From NCBI GenBank assembly GCA_002840435.1, contig PHAT01000005.1:36460-100459 (forward strand): 64,000 bases of DNA, read 5' to 3'. A program made the translations under genes and the position numbers. This DNA is from Deltaproteobacteria bacterium HGW-Deltaproteobacteria-6 (GTDB lineage: Bacteria; Desulfobacterota; Syntrophia; Syntrophales; Smithellaceae). Of this stretch, positions 8,743-54,671 are shown piece by piece. The notes below the pieces were generated by a model, which saw only the letters and a program-made list of their open reading frames with translations, was not told the DNA's origin and did not search any database. Position 1 is the stretch's first letter, and each line of letters opens with the position of its first letter.

Positions 8743-8794
8743 AGCGTATGTCGTGGTTTGCGATTCACGAGATGCAAGATACGGGGAAAAATCC

Positions 8795-9847
8795 TTGATA
8801 CTGAAAAACAAAAAAAAATTACCCAAGAGCGGCCTCGACAGAATATTGCTCCGCGGCACCAACTGGATCGGAGACGCCATCATGACGTTGCCTGCGGTCG
8901 CCTCCGTGCGCGCGGCCTATCCGAAGGCTCATCTGGCCATTCTCGCCAAACCGCCAGTGACGGATATCTATAAACTGTTTTCAGCAGCCGATGAAATCAT
9001 TCCTTATGAGCAGAAATTTCAGAATCTCCCGGGCGTCCTTCGTCTGGCTTATGAGCTCAGGCGAAAAAAGTTTGACGCTGCCATTCTGCTCCAAAACGCC
9101 ATTGAAGCGGCGATTATCGCCGTGGTTGCAGGCATCGGCGTACGCGCCGGCTACAATTCCGACGGACGCGGTCTTTTGCTGACACACGCGATACGCCGCA
9201 CCAGGGAAATCCTGAAGGTTCATCAGATTGATTATTATCTGGAAATGGTGAAGGCCCTTGGTTGTGCAAATGTTGATCGCACCATGCACATGGAAACCTG
9301 CATCTCTTCCGCAACCGCGAAGGAAATTTTGCAGCAGTATGTGCCGGAAAGCGGCAAAACCATTATGGGCATTGCACCGGGGGCAACTTACGGACCGGCC
9401 AAACGATGGCTGCCGGAAAGATTTGCCCTGGCCGGGGATTGCCTCAGCCGGGATTTAAACGCTCAAGTCGTCCTCTTCGGCGGCCAGCCCGACTGGGAAA
9501 CGGCCGAACAGGTCCGGAAACAGTCACAAACCGGCATGCTGAATCTGGCCGGCAAAACGACTCTGCGCGAAGCGGTTTATCTCATATCGCAATGCCGGTT
9601 ATTTATCAGCAATGATTCCGGGTTAATGCATGTGGCCGGCGCTCTGAATATTCCCACCGTTGCCATTTTCGGTTCCACCAATCCGGTGACCACATCACCC
9701 GCCGGCGAAAAGACCGTCCTGGTGCGGAAGCCGGTGTCATGCAGTCCCTGCTTGAAGGAAACGTGCCCGACGGATTTCCGCTGCATGACGGAGATCACCG
9801 CCGACGATGTTGCCGCGGCGGCCAGCACGTTAGTGAAGAAAAGTTGA
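8795..9847 (+). CDS. Glycosyltransferase family 9 (LPS heptosyltransferase, WaaF-like)
   Basis: RILLRGTNWIGDAIMTLPA at the N-terminus and the GT9 signature SNDSGLMHVAGALNIPTVAIFGSTNP. Start is uncertain: TTG 8795 with GGGGA upstream, or GTG 8753. The track start at 8651 overlaps lpxL by 92 nt. Confidence 0.7.
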   Translation: MILKNKKKLPKSGLDRILLRGTNWIGDAIMTLPAVASVRAAYPKAHLAILAKPPVTDIYKLFSAADEIIPYEQKFQNLPGVLRLAYELRRKKFDAAILLQNAIEAAIIAVVAGIGVRAGYNSDGRGLLLTHAIRRTREILKVHQIDYYLEMVKALGCANVDRTMHMETCISSATAKEILQQYVPESGKTIMGIAPGATYGPAKRWLPERFALAGDCLSRDLNAQVVLFGGQPDWETAEQVRKQSQTGMLNLAGKTTLREAVYLISQCRLFISNDSGLMHVAGALNIPTVAIFGSTNPVTTSPAGEKTVLVRKPVSCSPCLKETCPTDFRCMTEITADDVAAAASTLVKKS

Positions 9848-11519: not shown

Positions 11520-12083
11520 TTAATGAGTCACCCCTTCACGGCGCAACACCTTGAACAGCGTTAGAAAAAGTATTTTTAAGTCCAATTTCATTGAACAATT
11601 ATTAAGGTAATGGACATCAAAATCAACCTTAACCGGAATGGGAAGGTTGTCACGTCCGTTAATTTGCGCCCATCCGGTAACACCCGGCATTAAACGATGC
11701 ACGCCTTTTTGAGTTCGCAGCGCGATCAAATCATCCTGATTAAACAATGCCGGGCGGGGCCCGACAAAACTCATGTCTCCTTTGATGACACTCCATAATT
11801 GAGGCAATTCATCGAGACTTGATTTTCGCAAAAACTTGCCGATGGGCGTCAGATACACATCAGGATCATTCAAAAGATGCGTTGCTACAGCAGGCGTATC
11901 TGTGCGCATGGTGCGAAATTTGGGCATTCTGAATATCACGTTGTCTTTGCCAACCCTGTCGGACCAGTAAATAACGGGCCCCCTGGAGGTAGACTTTACC
12001 AGAAACGATACAGCCAGCAGAGGCAGAGAAAAAAAACAAAGGGCAACAAACGCTATCGCAATATCCAATAATCTTTTTAACAC
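11520..12083 (-). CDS. Small monotopic phosphoglycosyl transferase (bacterial sugar transferase, PglC/WbaP-C/CapM type)
   Basis: KRLLDIAIAF re-entrant helix, PKFRTM, GPRP, and the LDELPQLWSVIKGDMSFVGPRP motifs. A likely GTG start at 12083 follows AGGAA and overlaps the upstream stop (GTGTTAA). The track start at 12128 is a TTG. Confidence 0.8.
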   Translation of the reverse strand: MLKRLLDIAIAFVALCFFSLPLLAVSFLVKSTSRGPVIYWSDRVGKDNVIFRMPKFRTMRTDTPAVATHLLNDPDVYLTPIGKFLRKSSLDELPQLWSVIKGDMSFVGPRPALFNQDDLIALRTQKGVHRLMPGVTGWAQINGRDNLPIPVKVDFDVHYLNNCSMKLDLKILFLTLFKVLRREGVTH

Positions 12084-13078
12084 GGCAACGTTCCTGACTG
12101 TCTCATTTCCCGAACAGCATTTTGCCAACCGGTCGACAAATCATATTGCGGCACAAAACCAAGTTCATACTGAATGCGCCGGCTGTCCACCGCCACATCC
12201 TCCGTATATTTATCAACAGTCGCACGCACGATAGGCGGTTTAATGCCGGCGATCTTCGCCAGATCTTCAACAAGGCCGGCTGCAAAGCGCACCGGACCAA
12301 CCGGCAATGACAGACGGGGCAATTTCCTGTCCAAAGCCTGACACATGCTGGAAATAATATCATTTAAAGTGTGAAATTCACCGTCAGAAACGTTGAAGAT
12401 TTTTCCGGCGGCGGCGGAATGCTGTAAAGCCAGCACAGCAGCGCGCGCCACATCCTCATCATAAACCAATGTGCGTCTGTTGGAACCATCCCCGACCGGC
12501 AGGAAACGGCCTCTCGCCAGAGATTGTAAAAGACGTTCATAATTCCCTTTAATTCCTGAACCGTAAATCGCACCCAGACGCAAAACAGTCCCCATCCGCC
12601 TGCCATCCACATCTCTGGCATTCAGCACAATTCTTTCCGCCGCAAGCTTGGTCTGTGAATAAAAAGTATCCGGATGAGGCGGGGTCTCTTCGGTAACAAT
12701 CCGGCCGTGCGTGGATCCATAAACGGCAATGGTACTGAAATAAATAATGCGCCTGACTCGCGACTGCAAAGCTGCCTCAACGACCGTAGCCGTCCCTCCC
12801 ACATTAATCCGTTCGTATTTCTTTTGCAGGGCGGGCGGCGGATTTACAATATGCAGCAGAGCCGCCAGATGAATAACCGAATCAATGTCACAAACGACGG
12901 CTTGAACGGCCGCAGCATCCGTTACGTCGCCAATAACAACTTCTACACCTTCGGGCCATAAACCAACCCGGGGTGGATCAATCGACAAGGTGCGAACGCG
13001 GTAGCCCGCATTGCACAACGCAGTGACAACGCGCGGGCCAACGGCGCCCGTGGCGCCCGTTACTAAGATTTTTTGCAT
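12077..13078 (-). CDS. NAD-dependent sugar epimerase/dehydratase (SDR; CapN/WbjF-like position)
   Basis: MQKILVTGATGAVGPRV Rossmann motif and YSQTK catalytic motif. It sits between a WbuB-like GT and the PGT. ATG at 13078. Confidence 0.75.
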   Translation of the reverse strand: MQKILVTGATGAVGPRVVTALCNAGYRVRTLSIDPPRVGLWPEGVEVVIGDVTDAAAVQAVVCDIDSVIHLAALLHIVNPPPALQKKYERINVGGTATVVEAALQSRVRRIIYFSTIAVYGSTHGRIVTEETPPHPDTFYSQTKLAAERIVLNARDVDGRRMGTVLRLGAIYGSGIKGNYERLLQSLARGRFLPVGDGSNRRTLVYDEDVARAAVLALQHSAAAGKIFNVSDGEFHTLNDIISSMCQALDRKLPRLSLPVGPVRFAAGLVEDLAKIAGIKPPIVRATVDKYTEDVAVDSRRIQYELGFVPQYDLSTGWQNAVREMRQSGTLPC

Positions 13079-13103
13079 GCGCTGATCGAATCTGCTCAAA
13101 AAG

Positions 13104-14342
13104 TCAATTTCCGGTTTTACGTCCGTGGGCCACGTCCTGCATCCAGCCTTCCAATTTCGTCATCAGCATGTCTCTGTCAAAATTTTCCACACAATAATGA
13201 ATGCCGCATTTGCCCATTTTTTCTCTTTGGTCCCTCGGCATTTGATACATGGCAAGCACAGCAGCGGCCAGGGCATCGGCATCCTCGGCAGGCGAAGACA
13301 AACCTGCGCCGGATTCCGAAACCAGACGGCCGCCTTCCCCGTCAAGAGCGGCTATAATCGGTTTCCCACAAGCCATGTAGGATTGAATTTTTGCGGGAAT
13401 GGTTAATGCAAAGATCGGATCTCTTTTCAGGGTGACCAACAGAACATCGGCAAATGAAAAATAATAGGGCATGGTTTCCATCGGGTGTCTGCCCAGCAGA
13501 TGGAAGCAATCGGAGATCCCCTGCTTTGCAATCTGCCCTTCTACCCAACGTCGCGAACGGCCGTCACCCAGAATAATCCACTGGATGTCTTTATACTCCC
13601 GAAGTTTTACTGCAGCAGCAAGAATGGATTCAAAATCCTGAGCGGCGCCGATATTGCCGGCAAACATGATTCGAAAGCCGGAAGGTAATCGCTGCAGCCC
13701 CTCAAAACCCGATTCTGCAGGCATCGGTTTGTATATTTTTTCAACGCTGTTGGGGAAGTAGATAATCCTCCCGGGGGCAACCCGATATTCTTCTATCATG
13801 GGGATAAAGGCAGTGGATTGCACCAATATCCTGTCGCAGCGTTCATAAATAAATCTTACCAGCCTCTTGACGCCATCAAGAATTGTCCGCGAATGGACAG
13901 CGCCCGTAGCGGATAGACTTTCCGGCCATAAATCCTGCACCCAGAAAAAGAGGGGAATCCCCTTCAGCTTTTTCAGTACCACCGCCGGAATACCGACGGT
14001 TACCGGTGAAGGCTCATAAACCAATATTACATCGAAGTTCCCGCGGCAAAAAAAAGGCGCCATCATGCTTGCGAAAAAAGCAAATGACGCATAATTGAGC
14101 ATCAAACGTAATCGGCCGCCTGCGCCGCGCGCTATTAATGGAACGCGTATTATTCTTACACCGCAGTAATCCTGTCGAAGGTTCCTGAACAGGCTGTAGC
14201 CGGGGAAAAAGTGTCCGTCAGGATAGTTCGGTATCCCGGTAAGAACCGTCACCTCGTGGCCCCTTTCCACCAGACCGGCACCCAAGTCATTGATGCGAAA
14301 GTTTTCCGGCCAGAAATACTGGGATATTATCAGAATTTTCAT
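13104..14342 (-). CDS. Glycosyltransferase family 4, WbuB/WcaI-like (putative L-FucNAc transferase)
   Basis: MKILIISQYFWPENFRINDL N-terminus typical of the WbuB/WcaI group, with a GT-B C-terminal half. Immediately downstream of the fnlABC-like genes. Confidence 0.7.
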   Translation of the reverse strand: MKILIISQYFWPENFRINDLGAGLVERGHEVTVLTGIPNYPDGHFFPGYSLFRNLRQDYCGVRIIRVPLIARGAGGRLRLMLNYASFAFFASMMAPFFCRGNFDVILVYEPSPVTVGIPAVVLKKLKGIPLFFWVQDLWPESLSATGAVHSRTILDGVKRLVRFIYERCDRILVQSTAFIPMIEEYRVAPGRIIYFPNSVEKIYKPMPAESGFEGLQRLPSGFRIMFAGNIGAAQDFESILAAAVKLREYKDIQWIILGDGRSRRWVEGQIAKQGISDCFHLLGRHPMETMPYYFSFADVLLVTLKRDPIFALTIPAKIQSYMACGKPIIAALDGEGGRLVSESGAGLSSPAEDADALAAAVLAMYQMPRDQREKMGKCGIHYCVENFDRDMLMTKLEGWMQDVAHGRKTGN

Positions 14343-14353
14343 CAACTACATAT

Positions 14354-15484
14354 TCACTGCTTCTTCCATACCGTCCGGTTGACATAGTCGGTATAGCTCA
14401 GGATGATCCGCAGAACTTTCCGGGAGACATTATCCGTATCGTAATCCGACACCAGTCTGAATGGCCGGGACGATAACGCCTGCTGGCAGGTTACGACATC
14501 AATCGCATCGATAACCGACTCAGCCTGCAACCCGCACATGATCAGGGTCCCCTCATCCATCCCTTCGGGCCGCTCATGGGCCTGACGAATGGTAACCGCC
14601 GGGAAATTAAGAATGGTCGACTCCTCGGTAATGGTGCCGCTGTCGGAAATGACGCAGGCGGCGTTCATCTGCAACTTCACGTAATCGAAGAATCCAAGCG
14701 GTTTCAGAAAATGAATATGCGGGTTAAAACCGCCGGAACCCATATCCTCCAGCCGCTTTCTCGTACGGGGATGAGTGGAAAAGATGATGGGACGGCCATA
14801 TTTCGCCGCAATGGCATTCAGGGAGGCGAGAAGATTGGCAAAATTATCTTTGCTATCCACGTTTTCTTCGCGATGTGCACTTACGACAAAGTATTCTCCT
14901 TTTTTTACCTGGAGTCTGTTCAACGCGTCAGAGGACTCAATTTGAGGCAGGTAATAATCCAGCACCTCCTTCATCGGGGAACCGCTCTTAATCACCGTTT
15001 CCGGCTTTATCCCCTCCGCCAGCAGATAACGGCGGGCATGCTCGGTATTGGTCATATTGATATCACTGGTGTGGTCAACAATTTTCCGGTTGATTTCTTC
15101 CGGCACCCTCAGATCAAAGGATCGGTTTCCCGCCTCCATATGGAAAATAGGTATCTTGCGCCGTTTGGCCGATATAACTGAGAGGCAGCTGTTGGTATCA
15201 CCGTAAAGCAAAACGGCATCCGGTTTTTCTTTTCCCATGACCTCATCAGATTTCGCTATAATATTACCGATCGTCTGTGCCAGCGTTTTACCTACCGAAT
15301 TAAGGAAATGGTCGGGCTTGCGAATCCCCATCTCCTTGAAAAATATCTCGTTTAATTCGTAGTCATAATTCTGCCCCGTATGCACCAGCATATGCTCCAG
15401 ATGTTTTTCCAATTCATACACCACGCGGCTCAGTTTTATGATCTCAGGCCGGGTACCGACTATCGTCATCACTTTTAAAGCCAT
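14354..15484 (-). CDS. UDP-N-acetylglucosamine 2-epimerase, non-hydrolysing (FnlC/CapG/WecB family)
   Basis: 376 aa with VMTIVGTRPEIIKL, HTGQNYD, GDTNS and SDSGTITEE motifs of the WecB-type epimerase fold. Confidence 0.85.
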   Translation of the reverse strand: MALKVMTIVGTRPEIIKLSRVVYELEKHLEHMLVHTGQNYDYELNEIFFKEMGIRKPDHFLNSVGKTLAQTIGNIIAKSDEVMGKEKPDAVLLYGDTNSCLSVISAKRRKIPIFHMEAGNRSFDLRVPEEINRKIVDHTSDINMTNTEHARRYLLAEGIKPETVIKSGSPMKEVLDYYLPQIESSDALNRLQVKKGEYFVVSAHREENVDSKDNFANLLASLNAIAAKYGRPIIFSTHPRTRKRLEDMGSGGFNPHIHFLKPLGFFDYVKLQMNAACVISDSGTITEESTILNFPAVTIRQAHERPEGMDEGTLIMCGLQAESVIDAIDVVTCQQALSSRPFRLVSDYDTDNVSRKVLRIILSYTDYVNRTVWKKQ

Positions 15485-15514
15485 ATAAATTCTCCTTGCA
15501 TTCTGCCGTCCTGA

Positions 15515-16447
15515 TTATCCCGGCAGGACTTCATTTTTGTTGTGAGACTGCCATTGCTCGTAGGGCGTTTGATCGGCGGCCATGTCCAACATCATCCGGC
15601 GCCAGGATGGGCATTTAAAACCCGTGGCCCTGACAAATTTTTCACCGTTGAGATTACGTTTGCATTCAAATTGATCGTCACGATCTATTTCAATGTCAAT
15701 TTTATAGGCTTCTTTCATCAGATGAAGCAGGTCATATTTGGAAACTGTTTCGCTGGAAACGTGGTACAATCCATGCAGATCCGGAAATTTCTCTATCAGT
15801 TCGCTCACCAGCTCGGCAAGGCGGTTCGTGGTAAGACCGGTAAACAACGCTTTACTGTAGCCGCTCACCCGCTGGCCCTCCCTGGCCAGGAACCATTCAA
15901 GAAGTTCCGTGCCGCCGAAGATTTCGCGGCCGATAAAAGAAGATCTGATCGTCAGGGCGTTAGGTGATTGGACGTCACCGAGCGCCTTTGTCATCCCGTA
16001 AAGATCCCGCGCATCCGGAGGACTATTCTCGTCATAATTTCCCGACTTGCCTTCAAAAACACAGACGGTGCTGAAATGAATGAGCCGGGCGGCATTTTCA
16101 GCACACCATTTGGCCAGCACATGCGGAAGCAAGGCGTTGACGGCAATATTAGAGAGTTTATCATCCGCCTCTTGGCTCCGCAGCGTTACGCCGGCACAAT
16201 TTATAATGACCGAGGGGCGAATGTCTTTGAGGACGGCTGCCAGTTGTTTAAAATCGCGAAGATCAAGACATTCAATAACATTGGTCCCGTAAAACAAATT
16301 GCAATTTTCGTAATAGGTTTTTGCTTTTCGTATGGAAACATAGGTATCGGGGAATTTTTCCGGCAGTCTTTGCCAAAGCTTGTGACCGAGCGCCCCCCCC
16401 CCGCCTGTAATCAGTATGCGTTCGGCCTTATTCACTTGATATCCCAT
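15515..16447 (-). CDS. SDR reductase, FnlB/CapF-position (RmlD-like substrate-binding fold)
   Basis: 310 aa with ILITGGGGALG and YGMTK motifs. Its position between fnlA-like and fnlC-like genes supports the call. It is shorter than typical FnlB/CapF (about 370 aa) and contains the G10 tract. Confidence 0.6.
   Translation of the reverse strand: MGYQVNKAERILITGGGGALGHKLWQRLPEKFPDTYVSIRKAKTYYENCNLFYGTNVIECLDLRDFKQLAAVLKDIRPSVIINCAGVTLRSQEADDKLSNIAVNALLPHVLAKWCAENAARLIHFSTVCVFEGKSGNYDENSPPDARDLYGMTKALGDVQSPNALTIRSSFIGREIFGGTELLEWFLAREGQRVSGYSKALFTGLTTNRLAELVSELIEKFPDLHGLYHVSSETVSKYDLLHLMKEAYKIDIEIDRDDQFECKRNLNGEKFVRATGFKCPSWRRMMLDMAADQTPYEQWQSHNKNEVLPG
16393..16402 (-). repeat. Homopolymeric G10 tract (C10 on the + strand) inside the fnlB-like CDS
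   Basis: Read directly: cgCCCCCCCCCCgcc. It encodes the GGGG of the Rossmann motif as GGC GGG GGG GGG GCG. Confidence 0.9.
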
Positions 16448-17454
16448 GAGGCAAGTTCCTGTTGAATATAATCTAATCTCAGCAATTTTTCCGTCACCTC
16501 ATCAACGGCAAGCCTGTGCGTATTATGTGAATTATAATCGTCCATCCTGGATATCTGTTCCGTACCTTCGGTAAAATATTTGTTGTAATTCAGATCGCGG
16601 TCATCTGGAATAATTCTGAAATAATGTTCAAGTTCTTCGGCCTTGGCAAGCTCTTCCCGGGTCAGCAGCGTCTCATAAAGCTTTTCGCCATGCCGCGTTC
16701 CGATAATCTTTATGTCATTATCGCTTTTAAATATCTTTTTTAACGCCATCGCCAGATCATGAATCGTACAGGCAGGGGCTTTTTGAACAAATATATCACC
16801 CTGCCGGGCATGCTGAAAAGCATATACCACCAAATCCACCGCATCATCCAAAGACATCAGAAATCTCGTCATCTTAGGATCTGTTACGGTCAGCGGCTTT
16901 CCCTCCTTGATTTGCTTGATGAACAGCGGAATAATGGACCCCCGGGATGCCATGACATTTCCATAACGCGTGCCGCAAAATACCGTTTTGTTGTTGCCTA
17001 TTGTTCTGGTTTTCGCCACCATCAGTTTTTCCATCATGGCTTTCGAGATCCCCATGGCATTAATCGGATAAACCGCTTTATCCGTGCTCAACACAATTAC
17101 TTTTTTTACGTGATTAGCCAGCGCGGCATTTAAAACGTTCTCCGCACCCAGAATATTGGTTCTGACCGCTTCCATCGGATAAAATTCACAGGACGGAACC
17201 TGCTTCAAGGCAGCGGCATGAAAAATAAAATCGACGCCATCCATAGCAAAATTCAAGCTGTCGTAATGGCGGACATCCCCGATATAAAACTTCACCTTCG
17301 GATTATTCAGTTCAATACGCATGTCTTCCTGTTTTTTCTCATCCCGACTGAAAACACGGATTTCCTTAATATCGGTGTTGAGAAATCGTTTTAAGACAGC
17401 ATTGCCAAATGAACCGGTGCCGCCGGTGATCAGAATGTTTTTACCTTTAAACAT
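16432..17454 (-). CDS. fnlA: UDP-GlcNAc 4,6-dehydratase/5-epimerase (FnlA/CapE/WbjB family)
   Basis: 340 aa with MFKGKNILITGGTGSFGNAVLKRFL, STDKAV, and the MEK-type catalytic motif (ISKAMMEKL) typical of CapE/FnlA. Confidence 0.8.
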   Translation of the reverse strand: MFKGKNILITGGTGSFGNAVLKRFLNTDIKEIRVFSRDEKKQEDMRIELNNPKVKFYIGDVRHYDSLNFAMDGVDFIFHAAALKQVPSCEFYPMEAVRTNILGAENVLNAALANHVKKVIVLSTDKAVYPINAMGISKAMMEKLMVAKTRTIGNNKTVFCGTRYGNVMASRGSIIPLFIKQIKEGKPLTVTDPKMTRFLMSLDDAVDLVVYAFQHARQGDIFVQKAPACTIHDLAMALKKIFKSDNDIKIIGTRHGEKLYETLLTREELAKAEELEHYFRIIPDDRDLNYNKYFTEGTEQISRMDDYNSHNTHRLAVDEVTEKLLRLDYIQQELASWDIK

Positions 17455-17607: not shown

Positions 17608-18762
17608 TCATGTCAAAACATTTTGCTTTTTGTGCTTCGCGATCGTTTCCGGCGACCACCATTCCCCTGTGTCTATTGTTGACATCATCCTTTCAAACTG
17701 CCCGGCAAGAAGTTCCGATGTCTCCTGCCCGAAAGAAAACCGTTGAAAGGGGCTGGCGAAAAAGAACCGCACAAAATTATCGTCCCTGACCATCTCTTTG
17801 TATCGTTCGAGATTGATGTCCGTATTCACAATCAGATAGGGCTTGTCGTTGAATTCCGCCATCGTGGCCATACCGGAGGATGATCCCATGTGCAGAGCCG
17901 ACTCGTGAATCATGGCCAGTTCCAGTTCAAGATTCGTGTACCGATCTTTGGCGATGATCACATTTGAGCATTCGCGGAGTCTGCTGTCTACTTCAGAAAG
18001 AGCACAGATTACAACGAATTTTACAGGATATCTGTTCCGGCATCCGTTAAAAAATTCTATCCAGCTGTCTATGTGCGCGTTCCGATGGGTACCATAAGAT
18101 GGATTATTGCGCATCTGGACGGTAACCGGAATATCCGGCCACACGTGATGATAGAAAAAATCAAGGGCCGCATCCCGCAAAAAGGGTCGGCACTCCAACC
18201 GCGGGATAGAACCATGGATTTGATAGTAGTCATACAACACTTCATTAAAAATGACGTAATTCAAGTAAATGCCGGACGCGTATTTCCCTGCCGAAGGCCA
18301 GACCACATAACGACTTTCATTGTCCGCTACATATTTTTCCAGTTGCGCATGTGAATTAAAAATCATGACGGATCCGAGAAATGAATTGACCTGAAGGACC
18401 GGCAGCAGGGAAGAAAGATAGTGATGGACATTGTCCCGGTTGATGCCGGCGTAAGCCTCATCAACGGGTGACGGATTATGATGGTCATAGACCATCGCGA
18501 AATCGATCATCCCAACGCCGTGCGTTTCGCGAAGCGCCAGCGCGGCTTCCTGGACATGGATGATGTCGCCGATGCTGTATGGCTGGTAGGACAAATCATA
18601 AACGACCAATAATCTCCGTTCGCCTTCCTGAGACGTGGGAAGGACCCAGGCAACGAAACGAAACAGCCGCCATGATGAAACAGCCCATACCCAAAAACGC
18701 ATCAGGCGCCCGGAGCGGCGCGCCAGGGGGCCTGCAACCTTACGAAGAACGCTCTTGATCAT
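17608..18762 (-). CDS. Uncharacterised protein, paralog 1 of 3; putative GT-B (GT9-like) glycosyltransferase
   Basis: 384 aa. Shares VVYDLSYQPYSIGD, IPRLECRP and HMGSSSGMATMAEFNDKPYLIVNTD blocks with the 19798-20820 protein. The last block mimics the GT9 NDSGxMHxAAA...P motif. Confidence 0.55.
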   Translation of the reverse strand: MIKSVLRKVAGPLARRSGRLMRFWVWAVSSWRLFRFVAWVLPTSQEGERRLLVVYDLSYQPYSIGDIIHVQEAALALRETHGVGMIDFAMVYDHHNPSPVDEAYAGINRDNVHHYLSSLLPVLQVNSFLGSVMIFNSHAQLEKYVADNESRYVVWPSAGKYASGIYLNYVIFNEVLYDYYQIHGSIPRLECRPFLRDAALDFFYHHVWPDIPVTVQMRNNPSYGTHRNAHIDSWIEFFNGCRNRYPVKFVVICALSEVDSRLRECSNVIIAKDRYTNLELELAMIHESALHMGSSSGMATMAEFNDKPYLIVNTDINLERYKEMVRDDNFVRFFFASPFQRFSFGQETSELLAGQFERMMSTIDTGEWWSPETIAKHKKQNVLT

Positions 18763-19801
18763 AGGCTCTTACACATGTATAAAAATGACGGAACTGTTCA
18801 TATAAATCCGCCGACGCCGGCACATGAACACGGCCAGGCGGATCATTTTTTTGCCCGATCCGTATCATGGCACCGGACTTCCAATACTCAGCACCAGCTT
18901 CATGATCATTCTCTCCGGTTATATAAAAAGGTTTTTCGCGGCCGATCACTGCCATGGCATACTTGCTAAAAGAGCCCATATACATGTCGGATAATTGACA
19001 AAGCGCGTACTCTTCAATGAAATTGTATCCTAAGCTTTTTGTCACCGTGATATTCGGCAGCCCGGTTTGAAAATCTTCTTTAGCCGCAATTGCCTTGTCA
19101 AACAGGATAAAGTGAATCCAAGGGAAGTCCTGCCACGCCTTCAGAAAAAAATCCCGCCACTGAGATGATGAAAAAGCAGAGAAACCACCCATGTCCATTG
19201 CCACCAAGAACGTCAGGGGCGAATGCATTTTGATAATATTTTTCGCCCAGACCCGCAAATTCACATGAAGCCGTGTGCAGTTCCCGTGGATACGTTTTAT
19301 GTCCTGCCGATAAAGAAATTTTTGATCAAAGACAACCAGTAATTCATCTGAAACATTCATATTATCTTTTCGAATAAACTTTTCCGCATGCTCACGCATC
19401 AGCAGCAGCGGCATCCGGTGAAATTCTATATCTCTGACTGACGGGTACAACTGTAGACATGAAAAAAGCTCAGCAAACTGCTGATATTGATTCTCCTCGC
19501 CAAGGTAAATGTGAAGTTGATCCAGAATGGCTTCGGGAGACCCAAGGCTGCCGATCATCTGGTCTAAGGCGATCATTGCGTCTCTGACACATTGCGGAGA
19601 GTCCTTTATGATGTAAATTTCTCCGGTATGGAGCGGGTGATTCGAGATTTCATCAAATCTCAAAATCATAGAAATAACCGTTCTGATGGAATTTTTTATC
19701 AGAAGAGCCCCCGGCCTAACGACATAGATTACCCGGGCTGTCTGCAGCAACCGATGCCACCATTTCCGGCTCGTAGTTACTATTGTTGTAAAGATATTCA
19801 T
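18740..19801 (-). CDS. Uncharacterised protein, divergent paralog 2 of 3
   Basis: 353 aa. The C-terminal half aligns by eye with its neighbours (W.DFF...P, LGYNFIEEYALCQLSDMYMGSFSKYAMAVIGREKPFYITGEND). Overlaps both flanking genes. Confidence 0.5.
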   Translation of the reverse strand: MNIFTTIVTTSRKWWHRLLQTARVIYVVRPGALLIKNSIRTVISMILRFDEISNHPLHTGEIYIIKDSPQCVRDAMIALDQMIGSLGSPEAILDQLHIYLGEENQYQQFAELFSCLQLYPSVRDIEFHRMPLLLMREHAEKFIRKDNMNVSDELLVVFDQKFLYRQDIKRIHGNCTRLHVNLRVWAKNIIKMHSPLTFLVAMDMGGFSAFSSSQWRDFFLKAWQDFPWIHFILFDKAIAAKEDFQTGLPNITVTKSLGYNFIEEYALCQLSDMYMGSFSKYAMAVIGREKPFYITGENDHEAGAEYWKSGAMIRIGQKNDPPGRVHVPASADLYEQFRHFYTCVRAYDQERSS

Positions 19802-20820
19802 TGTGTTTTCAGCATCTGATACGTGGGTTCAAATAAAGACAGCAGTAATTCAACTGTTTCTTTTTCCCAACTGATAATCTGATTGTCCAGTGCAAATGGG
19901 TAGGACAGAGCTCCGATGGGCAGATCGACATACTTGGCCGCAGCATGGTCAAAATTGGTGATGATATAGGGAATTTCACTGAAAGTTGCCAGGGCGGAAA
20001 AGCCGCTGGATGTGCCCATAAAAAGATCCGTCTGATGAAACAGCGTAATTTCATGAGCGAGATTATATCCCATCGCTCTGGGAATCAACACATTTTCAAA
20101 TGTATATAATTCCTTTTCCCATTCCGCATACCCACCGAAAGCAAGGAACAACACATCCGGATATTTTTTACGGACCACTTTAAAGAAACGATACCATTCG
20201 TGCAATGGCGAATCCCGGCGGATAACCCCTGACGCCTGCCCTGCAAAGCCTAAATCGGCATAATTTGCCCGCTGCCTGATGTTTACAGAGACCAGAAAGC
20301 GTCCGCTGCAGTGCTCCTTCAGAAAATCATCCATGCTGTTTTCATAACCCCGCGGTGTTTTTAATCGGGGAATATAATGATTTTCCTGAAAGAATTTATC
20401 GATTTTTTTATGGGAATAGTAATCCAGCTGCTCCATGGTATGGATTAACAGGTTTGGCCACGTGTGAAACCCGCTTAAAACTTTCTTCAACAAATAATAG
20501 TCAAAAGCGTGTCTGTTGGCAAACAGCTTCAACGACATCTCCAGCGGATTGCATAAAAAAGCCGGGAATAAATTGGATATATAGTCCCTGTAGTTTTCCC
20601 GGTTAATGTGTGGTTGAAGACGACCGGAGGGCCTTCGCGGATCAACAACCAGGCTGTGAATCACAGTATCGATGCCTTTATCCAGCGCTCCAATCGCCAC
20701 ATTAACCTGCCAGGTAAACGCATCTCCCAGCGCGTAAGGCGCATAAGAAAAATCGTAAATACCGATGAAGGGATACTTTATTTCTTTCTTTTGAATTTGA
20801 AAAGACATTATTTCTTTCAT
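19798..20820 (-). CDS. Uncharacterised protein, paralog 3 of 3; putative GT-B (GT9-like) glycosyltransferase
   Basis: 340 aa with GIYDFSYAPYALGD, IPRLKTPR and LFMGTSSGFSALATFSEIPYIITNFD blocks. 4-nt overlap with the downstream gene. Confidence 0.55.
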   Translation of the reverse strand: MKEIMSFQIQKKEIKYPFIGIYDFSYAPYALGDAFTWQVNVAIGALDKGIDTVIHSLVVDPRRPSGRLQPHINRENYRDYISNLFPAFLCNPLEMSLKLFANRHAFDYYLLKKVLSGFHTWPNLLIHTMEQLDYYSHKKIDKFFQENHYIPRLKTPRGYENSMDDFLKEHCSGRFLVSVNIRQRANYADLGFAGQASGVIRRDSPLHEWYRFFKVVRKKYPDVLFLAFGGYAEWEKELYTFENVLIPRAMGYNLAHEITLFHQTDLFMGTSSGFSALATFSEIPYIITNFDHAAAKYVDLPIGALSYPFALDNQIISWEKETVELLLSLFEPTYQMLKTQ

Positions 20821-20836
20821 TTCAAACCGGACATGA

Positions 20837-21943
20837 TTAGTCCGGCCTTCCTTTTATTAAGAAATCTCGAACTCGCAGCACCTCTTGATTTTTCATTAAC
20901 TCGGAATATAGTTTTTTCTGCCTCCATTTCCGTTCAAGATACGATTTAATCCTTCTGTAGGCGTAAGACGGGTAATGCTGCTTTGTCAGCACAAGATCCG
21001 CACCCGAAGCAAACACATAATTATTGTCAACTTCTTTCAACAAGTCATTTATTAAGACGGGGGCAATATATTTTCGATACCCCTTCTTAATATTATTCAT
21101 GGCATCTTCCAGACTGATGCCGTCTTGAGCAGATATAATTGAAGCGACCGCATTGTTGAAGTTCACAAAATCATCCGACCATGATTCCAAAAGGACTCTG
21201 TCAAAACGATCCATTAACGAGTCCTCCCTGGTGCAGTTTGTATTAAAATGGTGCTGCCGGAGAAGATACGGGACGGAAAGTGTTTTGATTTTTCCTGATG
21301 CAACAGCCATCAGGCTCGTTAAGAGTTCAGCAATCGTTACATCTTTGGGATATAAATCACGTAACGCATCAAAATAGCATCTAACATCTTCAATGTGATG
21401 GACGTCGTAGTAGGTTGTTGAATACGCTGCGAAGTGCGATATAATACGGTCTGAAGCCTTATCCTCCTCAAGGGAAACCGCTGATTGCACGAGGCAGCGA
21501 TCAATGCTTCCATAAGCTCCGTTTGCATCCGGCGCAATGGTAAACGCATACACTTGTCCTTTGCATGTTTTATAGTCATTGTTTTCCGAAAGAAATTTCA
21601 CCGATTGGCGGAGACCATCAACGATATAAAAATCATCATTATCTGCAAAAACAACAAAGGGTGTTTTTACTCTGGATAAAACATCCACTTTCTTTTCATG
21701 ATAAATTAAATAGGTCGCATCATAAGGGTAACGGATATACTCATAATCCAGATGAGGATAGGTATTCGCGCTGGATAAGACTTCGGTAATTTTCTTGTCT
21801 GATCCACCGTCCGCGATGAGTATCTTAAAGGGAAAGCGGCTTTCGTTGGCGTAAGCCATCCACCGATAGGTAAATGGCACACGGTCTTTGAGCGTGAGAA
21901 TGACCGTTAAATTCTTATCAAATTCGTTTTGCATAGACCTCAT
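20837..21943 (-). CDS. GT-A (GT2-like) glycosyltransferase domain protein, paralog A
   Basis: 368 aa with LTVILTLKDRVPF...ILIADGG and a DxD-like FADNDDF. About 60% identical by eye to the 24332-25465 protein. Confidence 0.6.
   Translation of the reverse strand: MRSMQNEFDKNLTVILTLKDRVPFTYRWMAYANESRFPFKILIADGGSDKKITEVLSSANTYPHLDYEYIRYPYDATYLIYHEKKVDVLSRVKTPFVVFADNDDFYIVDGLRQSVKFLSENNDYKTCKGQVYAFTIAPDANGAYGSIDRCLVQSAVSLEEDKASDRIISHFAAYSTTYYDVHHIEDVRCYFDALRDLYPKDVTIAELLTSLMAVASGKIKTLSVPYLLRQHHFNTNCTREDSLMDRFDRVLLESWSDDFVNFNNAVASIISAQDGISLEDAMNNIKKGYRKYIAPVLINDLLKEVDNNYVFASGADLVLTKQHYPSYAYRRIKSYLERKWRQKKLYSELMKNQEVLRVRDFLIKGRPD
21800..21943. repeat. Near-identical 5' coding segment shared with 25320-25465 (dispersed direct repeat about 3.5 kb apart)
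   Basis: By-eye alignment gives roughly 85% nt identity, including an identical 24-mer ggcacacggtctttgagcgtgaga at 21876-21899 and 25398-25421. Confidence 0.8.
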
Positions 21944-22036: not shown

Positions 22037-24277
22037 TCAAATCAGCAACTTTCTATTCAGATAATTATGGGGCTTCCATAAACTGATATTCAAGCGTGGA
22101 TGTTTATGTCTTTCCAGAATGATCTTCTGCTGGCGAAGAATGAATTTATTGATGAATAATCGCATCAACAGGACATTGGAAAGCCTGCTGTTCGAGATAT
22201 TAATCATAACATCCCAATCATTGGAGAATATCGCGCTCACCGGAAGAATATCAACCCCCGACGGATTCTTTTTTCCGATCTGTTTATCATCAACAGCCCC
22301 GGCAATGATACATCCATCTATGGTTCTTAATTTTTCCATAATGTAATGAAGACAGCGACCCGCACCCATCAACAGAATCTTTTTATTTTGCAGTAATTTT
22401 TCAGGAAACACATCCGGCATTAACGGCAACAATCTTTCTTTATTGACCAGATTTTCAGTCGCCATCAAATCGCAGGCATCCTGGAAATACATATCTGTTA
22501 TCAGAACAAGGTCTGGTTTCAGCTCCTTGATTTCGCCCAGCCTATATTGAGGATAGAAAAAGAATTTTTTCGATTCTGGCGTGCCGCCTGAACCAACAAA
22601 GCCGATGATTTTATTCATATCAAACCCCGGAAGGCCGAACGCCAGGATGCTTTTGGCGTTCATGCCCGTACCCAGAATCAGGACCTTCTCCACCCCCTGC
22701 AATGCCTCACTCAACCTGTCAACTGATTCCGGTGATCCAATCCTGGAAAATGAAACATTGAAACAGTGTGGACAAACCAATCTTATGACAAGGCCGTCCC
22801 ATCTCCAGTTCCCGAATTCCTTGCCGATTTCGCTGCTTTTTTTACAGATGGGACACCGGGCAGAATACTGATAACCCCCTTCGGCAACCTCCAGTTGGAG
22901 ATCACATTTGAATCTGCCGGAAAGGAATCCCAGATAGCGCCGGACTTCTTTCATAATCCCGTTGTGAAGGTCTTCCGTACCGGGAAAATCACTGACATTT
23001 AAATAATTTTTTTCGGCAATGCGTTCATCGTCCAATCCAATGTATTGCAGCTTTGTTAAATACTCATACTCGTCTTCGATAATTTTTTTTTCTCTGGCAT
23101 GTCTGTAAATCAATGTGCCGGGGTAGGCAATTGTCAGATTAATATTGGAAAACATCTCTTCCTCGATCAGCAGATTGAATGTTTCCCGCAAATCTTCCCC
23201 ACCTTCTCCCTCGCTCCCAACCATCACATTGCATTCCTGCGGCATTTTAGTTGCTTTGAGTTCATGAAGGAATGTCTGAATAGTTTTTCTGTTAACGCCC
23301 TTATTCATCCGTTTGAGGATTTTATCGGAGCCGCTTTCCGCGCCGATGGACACACCGATGCAACCTGATTCTTTCATCACCTTGAGGATAGCCGGATCCA
23401 CATCCAGTCTGAGACTGCAAAACCATTCCTTCGGCGGTCCTTCCGCTGAATACCGCCGACAGAATTCGACAATTTCCTCATGGTGGGCAAACAGCACTTC
23501 CGTCATGACGCCGAAAACCGAAAAATCATATGTTTCACTCATCCTCCACATCTCCTTGAGGATGTTATTGATTTTTCGCGATCTGAATTGTCCCATTGTG
23601 GGCCGGCAAAAAGAACAATGCCCCGTACACCCGCGTCCGGTCATAACAGGAAAAAACGTCCGTCCGGGAAAGCTGTGATGGCAGCTGTGCAGATATTTCT
23701 CCATGTCCAAATGATGCCAGGCAGGTTCCCGATCATCTGAATCCAGATTCAGCCTTAAAGATGCTTTCCTGTGGATTGTTCCGGATTTTCTATCCCGAAA
23801 CATGACGCCCGGAAGGTCATCGAAAAATTTTTCGCTTCGTTCCAGACGGCGTAATAAACCGGCAAAGGCTGTCTCCGCTTCTCCCAGCACGGCATAGTCT
23901 ATCCCGAAACGGTCGAATAGAATATCCGGATTAACGCACTGGGTAATGTTACCGCCCAGAATAAACGGCATGCTTTCTCCGTATTTTTTTATACGCCCGG
24001 CTAACTCAAGAAAGAAAGGTGCGTCACCCACAAGACCGCCTGTTGCCACGGCCAGATAGTCGTTCTGAGCGAAAAGTTTTTTATAATTTACCTTTTGAAA
24101 AAAAGAATCTATAAAATCAAAAGGAATACCATTTCTATCCATATCCGCCATGACATAAGCCAGACCGATCGGGAAAAACCCGTAATTGGGTTTTATCAGC
24201 AGGATTTTGCGGGAAAACGGATTTTGTTTTTCAACCATCTCCGATTTATACTTTTCTTTCTGATGAATATCTATCAA
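22037..24277 (-). CDS. B12-binding domain / radical SAM protein with a C-terminal Zn-ribbon and Rossmann-like extension
   Basis: 746 aa: an N-terminal cobalamin-domain-like ILLIKPNYGFFPIGLAYV, a CxxxCxxC cluster (GCTGHCSFC), then CPICKK...CPHC and two G-rich modules (KVLILGTGMNAKS, KKILLMGAGRCLHY). Confidence 0.75.
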   Translation of the reverse strand: MIDIHQKEKYKSEMVEKQNPFSRKILLIKPNYGFFPIGLAYVMADMDRNGIPFDFIDSFFQKVNYKKLFAQNDYLAVATGGLVGDAPFFLELAGRIKKYGESMPFILGGNITQCVNPDILFDRFGIDYAVLGEAETAFAGLLRRLERSEKFFDDLPGVMFRDRKSGTIHRKASLRLNLDSDDREPAWHHLDMEKYLHSCHHSFPGRTFFPVMTGRGCTGHCSFCRPTMGQFRSRKINNILKEMWRMSETYDFSVFGVMTEVLFAHHEEIVEFCRRYSAEGPPKEWFCSLRLDVDPAILKVMKESGCIGVSIGAESGSDKILKRMNKGVNRKTIQTFLHELKATKMPQECNVMVGSEGEGGEDLRETFNLLIEEEMFSNINLTIAYPGTLIYRHAREKKIIEDEYEYLTKLQYIGLDDERIAEKNYLNVSDFPGTEDLHNGIMKEVRRYLGFLSGRFKCDLQLEVAEGGYQYSARCPICKKSSEIGKEFGNWRWDGLVIRLVCPHCFNVSFSRIGSPESVDRLSEALQGVEKVLILGTGMNAKSILAFGLPGFDMNKIIGFVGSGGTPESKKFFFYPQYRLGEIKELKPDLVLITDMYFQDACDLMATENLVNKERLLPLMPDVFPEKLLQNKKILLMGAGRCLHYIMEKLRTIDGCIIAGAVDDKQIGKKNPSGVDILPVSAIFSNDWDVMINISNSRLSNVLLMRLFINKFILRQQKIILERHKHPRLNISLWKPHNYLNRKLLI

Positions 24278-24331: not shown

Positions 24332-25465
24332 TCATGTGTTTTTAAAACCGCTCAATAGAAATTCCCTGATACGGGATACTTCTTGATCATGATTCAAATC
24401 CGGACAGAAATCATTTTGATTTAAAACCTGCCTGGCATCCGGATTTATTTTCGTGCCTTTTCCCGCACCCGTTAATTTAGCTTTAAGTGCTTCATAACTT
24501 TTGAATAGATATAATTTTATAGATGTATTGGAAGGCGGCGGCTGTTGTATGGTGTTTTTCAAGATGCTATTTAAAATAACCGGATCAATAAATCTGCGAT
24601 AGCCTTTTTTTATATGTTGAATCGCACTTTCAACACTTATATTGTCCCTGATCCCGCAGATTGCGGCAACTGCCTTTACAAATGCTGTAAAATCATCCGA
24701 CCAGGATTCTAAAAGCATTCTGTCAAAACGATCAACCAATATGTCCTCTTTAGCGCAATTTGTATTCATGTGATACTGCCTGAGAAGATACGGATGAGCT
24801 ATTTTCTTTACTTTTCCTGATGCAACCGTCATAAAGCTTGTTAATAGTTCGGCGATGGTCACATCTTTTATATCAAAGTCATGTAACGCTTTAAAATTTT
24901 CTCTGATGTCTTCAATCCGATGGACATCATAATATGTAGTTGAGTACTTTTCAAAGTGTCTGGAAATGCGTTCTAACGCCCTCTCTTCTTCAAGCGATGC
25001 AGCCTCGTATAATGAAAACTGGATTGCATTTCCGTAAAGAGCATTTAAGTCAGGACTCAAAATAAAACTATACGTCTCTCCTCTGCAGGTACAATAATCA
25101 CGGTTTGCCGTCAAAAACTTCATAGCTTCACGAAGACCGTCATAAATGAGAAAATCGTCATTATCCGTAAATACGGCGAACTGCGTTTTAACTTTTGTCA
25201 AAACATCAGCTTTTTTTGCATGATATATGGAATATGTTTCGTCATAAGGATATCGAATATAATCATAATCGAGGTTGGGGTAGTTGCTTCTATTTGATAA
25301 TATTTCAGTTATCTGCTTATCCAGGCCGCCGTCCGCTATGAGAATTTTAAAAGGAAAGCGGCTTTCATTGGCGTAGGCCATCCATCTATATGTAAACGGC
25401 ACACGGTCTTTGAGCGTGAGAACGACTGTCAGATTCTTATCCAATTCTTTTTGTGTTGAGCTCAT
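24332..25465 (-). CDS. GT-A (GT2-like) glycosyltransferase domain protein, paralog B
   Basis: 377 aa with LTVVLTLKDRVPFTYRWMAYANESRFPFKILIADGG and FTDNDDF. The C-terminal ~70 aa are unrelated to paralog A. Confidence 0.6.
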   Translation of the reverse strand: MSSTQKELDKNLTVVLTLKDRVPFTYRWMAYANESRFPFKILIADGGLDKQITEILSNRSNYPNLDYDYIRYPYDETYSIYHAKKADVLTKVKTQFAVFTDNDDFLIYDGLREAMKFLTANRDYCTCRGETYSFILSPDLNALYGNAIQFSLYEAASLEEERALERISRHFEKYSTTYYDVHRIEDIRENFKALHDFDIKDVTIAELLTSFMTVASGKVKKIAHPYLLRQYHMNTNCAKEDILVDRFDRMLLESWSDDFTAFVKAVAAICGIRDNISVESAIQHIKKGYRRFIDPVILNSILKNTIQQPPPSNTSIKLYLFKSYEALKAKLTGAGKGTKINPDARQVLNQNDFCPDLNHDQEVSRIREFLLSGFKNT

Positions 25466-25534: not shown

Positions 25535-26452
25535 TCAACCCGGTAAAGGATAGCCGTACTTTTTCAGATCAAGTCCATACTCATGCATCAATTTCGCGTT
25601 GTCTTCCTGATAGAGTTCAATAACCCGCTTCCTCCAGGCATCCGACATAAAACCTTCGGCTGGCGGGCCTGACTGAACATAATTTCTGGCCATATCCTTC
25701 AGGGCGGCGCCGGGAATGTATTGTATGATATCACGGCCTCCAAAATGGTCACAGAATCGATGATACTGCCATTGACGCATGGTGTTCCTCGTCCTTTCAC
25801 GCCGCGATGAAACAAGCCCAATGGCCTCATCGGCATCTATGCGCAAAATCGCGCAAAGATCCTTGATGAAGCCGGGCGGGTTAGAAATAAAATCTTCATA
25901 GAACAAGATTTTAACTTTCTTTCTGTCAAAGTATTGTGTAAAGCCACAAAGGATTCTATGATAAAAATAACTGCCGATGAGACTGTATTTGATAAAATTT
26001 GTGGAATGATCCATCCATTCATCAAACGAAACAAATCGTTTCCAGTACCGGCGCGGAACATTCCTCAGGTAGGCGCCATGGTTGGCATACATCGACGGAA
26101 CAGCCGTCAGCTGATTTCTTACAACCAGTAATATTTCAGCGTCCGGAAGATAGCCGGAAAGACGTTTTGCGCACAATGCAGGAATATGGCTGGTCATGAT
26201 ATCTTCGCTGGAAAACAGCAGCGTCTTATCCCCGGCCGTTTCTTTCTTGCGCTTGAAAAGATCTTCAGCTTCGCGGGCTTTGAAATAGATATCATCATCC
26301 GAAATAAGAGAAAGGATGGTATCCTGATGTTCCGCATAATCATCACCATCCTCACCGATATAGACGAGATCTTTACTTTTTGAAAACAAGCAACGCTGAA
26401 GCGTTGTTGAACCGGTTTTATTGGCGCCGATATGAATGACGTTTTTTGACAT
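25535..26452 (-). CDS. PAPS-dependent sulfotransferase
   Basis: 305 aa with a 5'-PSB loop IHIGANKTGSTTL and a 3'-PB-like LLVVRNQLTAVPSMY. cysD/cysNC lie in the same transcription unit. Confidence 0.7.
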   Translation of the reverse strand: MSKNVIHIGANKTGSTTLQRCLFSKSKDLVYIGEDGDDYAEHQDTILSLISDDDIYFKAREAEDLFKRKKETAGDKTLLFSSEDIMTSHIPALCAKRLSGYLPDAEILLVVRNQLTAVPSMYANHGAYLRNVPRRYWKRFVSFDEWMDHSTNFIKYSLIGSYFYHRILCGFTQYFDRKKVKILFYEDFISNPPGFIKDLCAILRIDADEAIGLVSSRRERTRNTMRQWQYHRFCDHFGGRDIIQYIPGAALKDMARNYVQSGPPAEGFMSDAWRKRVIELYQEDNAKLMHEYGLDLKKYGYPLPG

Positions 26453-33946: not shown

Positions 33947-33957
33947 GGTTTGCCTCC

Positions 33958-39111: not shown

Positions 39112-39960
<849 letters not shown>

Positions 39961-39970
39961 GTTATACCAT

Positions 39971-40825: not shown

Positions 40826-40826
40826 T

Positions 40827-41741: not shown

Positions 41742-41762
41742 GCTGTTATCGAACCTGAACCA

Positions 41763-53712: not shown

Positions 53713-53717
53713 GTGAT

Positions 53718-54662: not shown

Positions 54663-54671
54663 TTTCGCTCC

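Follow-up and report, generated by a model that had tools for sequence, protein, structure and literature searches.

Several described systems stand close to the proteins considered here. In WaaC, a heptosyltransferase of glycosyltransferase (GT) family 9, the catalytic Asp is Asp13, which lies in a G-D motif that opens helix 1, and in the glycosylation of streptococcal serine-rich-repeat adhesins the GtfA-GtfB system combines an active enzyme of the GT-B fold with a non-catalytic GT-B paralog. O-antigen systems that depend on an ATP-binding cassette (ABC) exporter have repeatedly given new GT families, namely GT99, GT102, GT103 and GT137 (PMC11231755), and a further one is plausible at the locus described here. 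This locus is a trio of overlapping open reading frames (ORFs) in a stretch of 64,000 nucleotides (nt) from Deltaproteobacteria bacterium HGW-Deltaproteobacteria-6 (contig PHAT01000005.1, positions 36,460 to 100,459), and the whole of this stretch is referred to below as the window. All three ORFs lie on the minus strand and encode protein A (17608-18762, 384 amino acids [aa]), protein B (18740-19801, 353 aa) and protein C (19798-20820, 340 aa), with the positions and lengths given in a preliminary description made from the DNA alone. The follow-up analysis favors a reading in which A and C are active GT9-like transferases in the assembly of an O-antigen exported by Wzm/Wzt, with B probably serving as a non-catalytic partner of C. 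What appears to be new is an unclassified GT-B family that has a conserved degenerate partner.

Kinship and conserved residues of the three proteins

The genes are closely packed: the stop codon of C and the start codon of B share a 4-nt overlap (ATGA), and the end of B overlaps the start of A by 23 nt, which suggests that they are translationally coupled. The mutual relatedness of A, B and C, asserted in the preliminary description, extends well beyond chance in both BLASTP and profile-profile comparisons. Over their full length A and C align as paralogs (E = 9e-31, 26% identity over 344 columns), and the BLASTP alignments of B with C (E = 6e-9) and with A (E = 2e-4) cover only the C-terminal ∼140 aa. 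The hhalign comparison of a profile of B's four relatives with the C-family profile gave a match of 97.4% probability (E = 1.4e-11) over 291 columns, and B is thus a true but very diverged member of the family. The numbers of homologs counted were 199 for C, 36 for A and only four close ones for B. Four sequence blocks had been described as common to the three proteins. This holds for the W..FF......P block and for the C-terminal block, which is degenerate in B, where G-S-F-S-K takes the place of G-x-S-S-G. It does not hold for the N-terminal (V/I)YD(L/F)SY..GD block or the IPRL block, which are found in A and C only; at these two places B has IYIIKDSPQCVRD and CTRLH.

The divergence of B is most evident at individual residues. 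When 61 C-type, 37 A-type and 5 B-type sequences were aligned together, the positions found to be invariant or almost invariant in A as well as in C were, in C numbering, D23, P28, G32-D33, N76, R182, R202, W209, N243, R/K248, E/D257, G269, S272-G273, P284, Q314 and E321; neither family alignment contains an invariant histidine. In B, D23 is replaced by I/L, G32 by R, G273 by K and E321 by P, while R182 and R202-D203 are absent. B retains D74, W215, N250, K255, E264, G276 and P291. The same losses are seen in the B-like proteins of other genomes (see below), in which G-x-(F/Y/L/M)-D-x replaces G-x-S-S-G. The preliminary description had suggested that the three divergent copies could be the polymerizing or adaptor transferases. 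Three transferases are unlikely, because most of the invariant residues of A and C are missing from B, which is one of a conserved subfamily of partners encoded after C-type genes.

The family is large and has gone unrecognized. An exhaustive HMMER search with the family profile retrieved 1,036 representative clusters (50% identity) at E ≤ 1e-3, of which 708 remained at E ≤ 1e-10 and 293 at E ≤ 1e-30, and matches in genomes come from Nitrospirota, Rokubacteria, Gemmatimonadota, Methylomirabilia, Verrucomicrobia and the Alpha-, Beta- and Gammaproteobacteria, with Azospirillum halopraeferens DSM 3675 and Marinibaculum pumilum KCTC 42964 as cultured carriers. A Pfam scan (E ≤ 1) left B and C without a match and gave A nothing but noise below threshold, and none of the 199 homologs of C has a Pfam domain. 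The sole curated model that was touched is TIGR04372 of NCBIfam (‘glycosyl_04372’, a putative glycosyltransferase domain), always below its curated cutoff of 45 bits. The best score was that of A (22 bits), for which residues 220-317, in the second Rossmann domain, align with model positions 19-115; C scored 12.9 bits and B gave no match. Across 62 family members, 56 touched this model weakly, every one below the cutoff. Among the papers of the library that was searched, none mentioning TIGR04372 was found, and nothing relevant turned up on TIGR04440, a model that bears on the neighboring genes. Two relatives carry the label ‘ADP-heptose:LPS heptosyltransferase’ from the JGI pipeline (LPS, lipopolysaccharide) and the remaining ones are labeled ‘hypothetical.’ The view that this is an unrecognized family is therefore upheld by the lack of a Pfam match and the sub-cutoff TIGR04372 scores, and no confident match of a hidden Markov model (HMM) to a characterized family of other function was obtained.

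Predicted fold and relation to GT9

An AlphaFold2 model of C, built from an input alignment of 62 sequences, had a predicted local distance difference test score (pLDDT) of 92.3 and a predicted template modeling score (pTM) of 0.90, and consists of two alpha/beta Rossmann-like domains of alternating strands and helices. When this model was searched against the PDB with Foldseek, GT9 enzymes ranked first, namely WaaC (2h1h; E = 2.4e-6, template modeling [TM] score 0.48-0.50), a Veillonella GT9 protein (3tov; E = 1e-5, TM 0.55) and WaaF (1psw; E = 4.6e-5, TM 0.52-0.53). Below them came NodZ (E = 4.9e-5, TM 0.35-0.43), and the lower ranks held UDP-GlcNAc 2-epimerases, TagF and TibC, all of them GT-B proteins. 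Nearly all of the top 50 PDB matches could be recognized as GT-B proteins, the three others being 8ahe_A and two chains of the plant supercomplex of NADH dehydrogenase-like complex and photosystem I (NDH-PSI). The B model (pLDDT 75.2, pTM 0.72, three stretches below 50) likewise found WaaF, the Veillonella GT9 protein and other GT-B proteins as its best matches; the homology of B to C has independent support from the hhalign comparison above. The predicted fold of C agrees with the earlier proposal of a GT-B fold, no non-GT fold was predicted, and the C model supports the GT9 heptosyltransferases as the nearest structural relatives. As a separate observation, the NDH-PSI chains 9grx_1, 7f9o_6 and 7wff_a are among the matches of the C and B models (TM ∼0.34-0.52), which would imply a GT-B-like subunit in that complex.

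Two regions of C can be set beside their counterparts in GT9. The first is the Gly-Asp pair G32-D33 of C (G65-D66 of A), which is invariant or nearly so in both families and stands at the start of a helix (31-47) that follows a strand (18-23), as does the ‘IGD’ of the GT9 proteins in the window, a correspondence of position and not of superposed residues; in A the surrounding sequence SIGDIIH resembles AIGDVIH of the WaaC-like protein of the window. The second is the C-terminal block, which the preliminary description had seen as a mirror of the GT9 signature. The GT9 string in question, SNDSGLMHVAGALNIPTVAIFGSTNP, is indeed present in the WaaF-like protein of the window (8651-9847). In the best profile path to GT9, which is not significant, the two are co-linear, with DLFMGTSSGF..PYII paired with CAVITTDSGP..PVIA, and in this path the block falls at the position of the GT9 donor loop. 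The resemblance as such is not significant by sequence, and the C-terminal G-x-D-(S/T)-G-x-x-H donor loop of GT9 was not found in A or C, which have G-x-S-S-G without the Asp or the His, nor in B, which has G-S-F-S-K.

Several results weigh against this relationship and the roles built on it. The TM-scores of the C model with GT9 proteins are only 0.48-0.55, and the Asp and the His of the GT9 loop (D-S-G-x-x-H) are not conserved in the family. PF01075 (Glyco_transf_9) gave no match to A, B or C at E ≤ 1, and a Pfam search over 62 family members at E ≤ 10 found no GT family, PF01075 included. Searches of PDB sequences with the single proteins and with the family profile returned chance matches only (VIM lactamases, dopamine hydroxylase). 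Comparison by hhalign with the GT9 proteins of the window, singly and as a three-sequence alignment, gave probabilities of 0.8% and 2%, which are not significant, and because of this the GT9 link is one of structure only. In addition, confidence in the B model is moderate and most of the alignment it was built from came from A and C, and the loop of the B-like proteins carries a conserved Asp of its own, by which catalysis could proceed in a different way.

The presence of other GT-B proteins among the Foldseek matches raises the question of whether A, B and C transfer sugars at all. They could instead be TagF-like polyol- or sugar-phosphate transferases or enzymes resembling 2-epimerases, given that UDP-GlcNAc 2-epimerases and TagF/TarL were also retrieved (E = 2e-4 to 2e-3) and that an HldE-like gene with a cytidylyltransferase-like domain belongs to the gene context. 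TagF and the 2-epimerases depend on a conserved His, however, and there is no invariant His in the A or C families. This and the lower structural scores (TM ∼0.3 for the epimerase and TagF matches versus 0.48-0.55 for GT9, which ranks first) speak against such functions, as do the fusion partners of the family, which are glycosyltransferase modules, and we regard this alternative as very improbable.

On balance, A and C are probably active Leloir-type glycosyltransferases of the GT-B fold. They would act at the cytoplasmic face of the inner membrane, adding a nucleotide-activated sugar to an undecaprenyl-linked O-antigen that Wzm/Wzt would then export. By analogy with GT9, the invariant Gly-Asp that opens the first helix would be the likely catalytic base, and binding of the nucleotide diphosphate would fall to both invariant Arg, to the Lys/Arg and Glu/Asp positions and to the second-domain loop G-x-S-S-G.

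The C-type/B-like gene pair and its genomic context

A regular feature of the family is that C-type genes are followed by B-like genes. In loci other than that of the window, the product of the next gene after a C-type gene matches the family weakly. With a profile made from 17 such proteins, a B-like ORF was detected directly after the C-type gene and on the same strand in all 24 assessable genome loci; a contig ending 216 bp past C and a locus with a truncated C gene were left out of this count. Eight of the detections are independent of the seed proteins (82-247 bits), and five detections are weak (22-58 bits). Two C-type/B-like pairs occur within 10 kb of each other in each of three loci (L017, L019 and L035), both pairs of L035 having 4-nt overlaps, which suggests that the pair is duplicated as a unit. 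No B-like partner accompanies the A-type genes of L033 and L034, the two that were examined away from trio loci. B has what would be expected of a partner subunit: presumed donor-binding and catalytic residues have been lost, the scaffold has apparently been kept and an intact paralog is adjacent in 24/24 loci.

The N-terminal regions differ in a related manner. The median length before the first strand is 16 aa in C, 51 aa in A and 59 aa in B. The N-terminus of A (∼50 aa) has a charge of +9 and a hydrophobic moment of 0.64, and that of B has a charge of +7, a hydrophobic moment of 0.59 and a helix at 3-41 in the model; neither extension contains a transmembrane segment. C is without such an extension, and the net charge there is 0. 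In the favored reading B most likely binds to C, as the non-catalytic member of a complex, and would tether C to the membrane by its cationic amphipathic N-terminus; A, having a cationic amphipathic N-terminus of its own, would work alone.

It could also be argued that all three proteins are active glycosyltransferases of different specificities, with B using another donor or acceptor in a modified active site. Conservation of the B-like proteins extends across phyla, N250, K255, E264, G276 and P291 are kept in them together with the conserved Asp in the loop, and the B model matches GT9 folds best. Against this, D23, both invariant Arg, the Ser-Ser-Gly and E321 are lost in B and the B-like proteins alike, and in the loci examined a B-like gene is never found apart from a C-type gene, which fits an auxiliary subunit better. 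An active B is accordingly considered unlikely, and a partner of C remains the preferred role for it.

Fusions place the family beside other glycan-assembly modules. In P0195 (800 aa) the family domain is fused to ABC2_membrane, a Wzm-type permease, and in P0232 (2,659 aa) it is joined with GT2, GT1-like, TPR and GT41 modules. Family domains occur in very large proteins of 1,344, 2,659 and 2,805 aa (among P0205, P0232 and P0249), and in P0205 (1,344 aa) and P0202 (950 aa) no Pfam domain was found outside the family region. As the N-terminal part of larger proteins, a B-like module precedes a GT2 domain of the TIGR04440 type in L021 and L027 and a radical SAM domain (CNLRCPSCP) in L023 (1608-3938) and L029 (11039-13336), and these partners are the enzyme types that flank the trio in the window. 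Given the GT2 and radical SAM fusions, the B-like module may also serve as a scaffold or dock.

Gene context was compared in 26 genome loci, 16 of which are cut by a contig end, with neighbors counted within 10 kb. Genes for Wzm and/or Wzt are near a family gene in 9 of these loci, a TIGR04440-like GT in 12, an HldE-like gene in 10 and a 4,6-dehydratase-like gene in 14, and in 16 loci the C-type gene has a transketolase/E1-type gene upstream of it. The last three kinds of gene usually keep one order on the upstream side of the C-type gene: HldE-like, dehydratase-like, transketolase. In close relatives (L001-L004) the C-B-A order is kept along with the same downstream genes as in the window, from FnlA onward. 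The tie to Wzm/Wzt that had been drawn for the trio is supported by wzm and wzt in the window itself, by the nine loci in which they are nearby and by the direct fusion to an ABC-2 permease in P0195. An A-type member (P0141, L034) lies in a Wzx/Wzy-type cluster, and because of this the family is not restricted to ABC-dependent pathways and is not inherently a family of polymerases.

This bears on a further possibility, in which C and B together, perhaps along with the neighboring TIGR04440 GT2 enzymes, would extend the chains as the polymerase of the Wzm/Wzt O-antigen and A would be an adaptor or terminating transferase. In its favor is a metagenome-assembled genome (MAG) of the Burkholderiales, in which C-type and B-like genes stand directly before wzm-wzt, between these and sugar-synthesis genes; no GT is recognizable in that stretch, the only other gene of which is an unannotated one (400/427 aa) with no Pfam or NCBIfam match. 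The fusions to Wzm and to GT2 modules also resemble the multi-module polymerases of ABC-dependent systems (PMC11231755). However, an A-type member occurs in a Wzx/Wzy-type cluster, wzm/wzt were seen in only 9 of the 26 loci, albeit with 16 of the 26 cut by a contig end, and processivity is not a property that sequence can reveal. A polymerase role for the pair is thus possible but doubtful. The preliminary description had found no conventional GT-B polymerase besides the WbuB-like enzyme, and in this it overlooked two GT2-type genes of the TIGR04440 type that are close to the trio.

These two genes are part of a minus-strand surface-glycan cluster of ∼52 kb that contains the trio and adjoins msbA, lpxK, lpxL, waaF-like, gmhB and waaC-like genes; the TIGR04440, radical SAM, Fnl-to-transferase, wzt, wzm, transketolase and heptose-module genes listed below are all on the minus strand. 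The first TIGR04440-type GT2-like glycosyltransferase (20837-21943; E = 2.2e-51, 174.7 bits) is encoded immediately upstream of C and the second at 24332-25465 (E = 4.7e-53). Between them is a 746-aa B12-binding radical SAM protein (22037-24277) with Pfam Radical_SAM and B12-binding matches and an NCBIfam match to methyltransferase-type radical SAM proteins, which is a probable sugar C-methylase. The TIGR04440 model matched by the two paralogs is described by NCBIfam as ‘TIGR00180 family glycosyltransferase,’ which looks like a slip in naming, because TIGR00180 is a ParB-type model.

Downstream of the trio, NCBIfam identified FnlA (16432-17454), an FnlB-like protein (15515-16447), FnlC (14354-15484), a WbuB/WcaI-like GT4 (13104-14345), a short-chain dehydrogenase/reductase (SDR; 12077-13099) and a small polyprenyl-phosphate sugar-phosphate transferase (11520-12128). 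These genes (11520-17454) are in the same operon-like run and together probably make the primer/adaptor region. Upstream, beyond the two TIGR04440 genes and the radical SAM gene, lie genes for a sulfotransferase homolog, methyltransferases, dehydratases and aminotransferases and those of the O-antigen ABC exporter, wzt (33958-35316, a Wzt/TagH-type ATPase by NCBIfam) and wzm (35329-36192, a Wzm/KpsM-type permease by NCBIfam). Still further upstream are cysNC, cysD, a Pst-like transporter, O-acetylation genes, methyltransferases, a split transketolase and a heptose-type module.

Several of these genes merit comment in their own right. The sulfotransferase homolog is a 305-aa protein (25535-26452) without an NCBIfam match, and a near-identical homolog has the Pfam domain Sulfotransfer_1 (L001, 7889-8806). 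The cluster also contains cysNC and cysD, for synthesis of 3′-phosphoadenosine 5′-phosphosulfate (PAPS), and a Pst-like ABC importer, these genes together taking up the spans 36258-39097 and 39112-42770, which along with the sulfotransferase homolog suggests a sulfated O-antigen. An MBOAT protein (521 aa) adjoins an AlgX-like SGNH protein (389 aa) at 45079-47782, a pair typical of polysaccharide O-acetylation. A 438-aa ORF (32720-34036) whose homologs have Methyltransf_13/14 domains (C-methyltransferase) shares, in the form listed, 79 nt with the 3′ end of wzt; its true start is probably further downstream because the homologs are 392-408 aa long.

The heptose-type module of the window (53718-58505), recognized by Pfam and NCBIfam matches, comprises an HldE-like protein (56982-58505), an NTP-transferase (56242-56985), a GmhA-like SIS isomerase (55667-56245), a 4,6-dehydratase-like protein (54672-55670) and an epimerase (53718-54662). 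It is followed by the split transketolase (51950-53712), with the N-part (52888-53712) matching Transketolase_N and the C-part (51950-52891) Transket_pyr/Transketolase_C. The HldE-like protein of the window has a reversed domain order, with the adenylyltransferase-like domain before the kinase, and scores below the HldE cutoffs. After the transketolase come a protein of ∼205 aa of unknown function and an APH-like kinase (module span 50307-58505), and the sub-module of transketolase, unknown protein, APH-like kinase and dehydratase recurs in A. halopraeferens (L036, 15692-21104).

By its association with the family, the product of this heptose-type module is a candidate for the donor sugar, although a rather unlikely one. 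A. halopraeferens is the one cultured carrier whose O-polysaccharide is known, and in strain Au4 this consists of Rha2Me, Fuc, Glc and Xyl (PMC4902059). It contains no heptose-type sugar, which counts against a heptose donor unless the locus makes another glycan; the A. halopraeferens locus L036 has only the transketolase, APH-like kinase and dehydratase genes in common with the cassette. Bradyrhizose, a lead that came from a family-carrying MAG of the Bradyrhizobiaceae, was dropped as the published 11-gene cluster holds nothing that can be linked to the family.

A more far-reaching proposal, which is speculative and which we think rather improbable as a whole, is that a C-type and a B-like protein together make up a glycosyltransferase of two obligate subunits, the founder of a new CAZy family. 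The C-type protein would be its catalytic subunit and the B-like protein a membrane-tethering pseudo-glycosyltransferase that also docks GT2 or radical SAM modules and Wzm. Their genes would be the last of a mobile cassette that crosses phyla and encodes an HldE-like kinase/nucleotidyltransferase, a 4,6-dehydratase, a thiamine pyrophosphate (TPP)-dependent enzyme and C-methylases, and the cassette would both make and polymerize a heptose-derived or branched higher sugar.

Comparison with known glycosyltransferase systems

Should the assignment of A and C as transferases and of B as their degenerate relative hold, it would define a new glycosyltransferase family of ∼1,000 clusters at 50% identity that is absent from Pfam and falls below the cutoff of the sole related model. 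The family occurs widely among environmental Nitrospirota, Rokubacteria, Gemmatimonadota, Verrucomicrobia and Proteobacteria, and in loci for O-antigens and capsules annotation could be extended to hundreds of genes now called ‘hypothetical.’ It would also provide a bacterial example of an enzyme and pseudo-enzyme pair in the assembly of lipid-linked glycans, and would draw attention to a conserved sugar-biosynthesis cassette whose product is as yet unassigned.

The one curated model that comes near the trio, TIGR04372, shares with it the weak match over the second Rossmann domain in 56/62 members, but the scores are far under the 45-bit cutoff and TIGR04372 is itself uncharacterized. NodZ, an alpha-1,6-fucosyltransferase of GT23, has a variant of the GT-B fold and is a secondary Foldseek match, but its TM-score is lower and its motifs do not correspond. 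The multi-module enzymes of ABC-dependent O-antigen systems, WbbB (GT99/GT102/GT103) and ORF7 of Klebsiella O4 (GT137), resemble the trio in being encoded in wzm/wzt clusters, and relatives of the trio are fused to GT modules and even to Wzm. They differ in that the modules of the window are separate proteins, in which no coiled-coil or terminator domain was seen, and that there is no sequence similarity. Mentions of ‘GT9’ in the literature on these enzymes (PMC11231755) proved to be GT99.

With respect to the pairing, a parallel is GtfA-GtfB. C likewise lies beside a diverged paralog, B, in which the fold is apparently kept and presumed donor-binding and catalytic residues are lost. There is no sequence kinship between the two systems, the acceptor here is presumably a lipid-linked glycan and not a protein, and the complex of C and B is a proposed one.

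With respect to the proposed catalytic proteins, the closest parallel is GT9 (PF01075; WaaC, WaaF; 2h1h, 1psw, 3tov), whose members have the GT-B fold and a similar size (∼320-350 aa) and are the top match of both the C and the B models. Both groups have a G-D pair at what appears to be the same place, the opening of the first helix, and, in the second domain, a glycine-rich loop that is followed by a helix and a Pro-containing strand, and the trio family is often encoded beside an HldE-like gene. They are separated by the lack of any significant sequence or profile match, by the loop, which in the trio family is G-x-S-S-G and not G-x-D-S-G-x-x-H, and by the two invariant Arg. In addition, the trio family is found in O-antigen and other surface-glycan clusters and not in core-LPS operons, and its C-type members have an obligate B-like partner gene.

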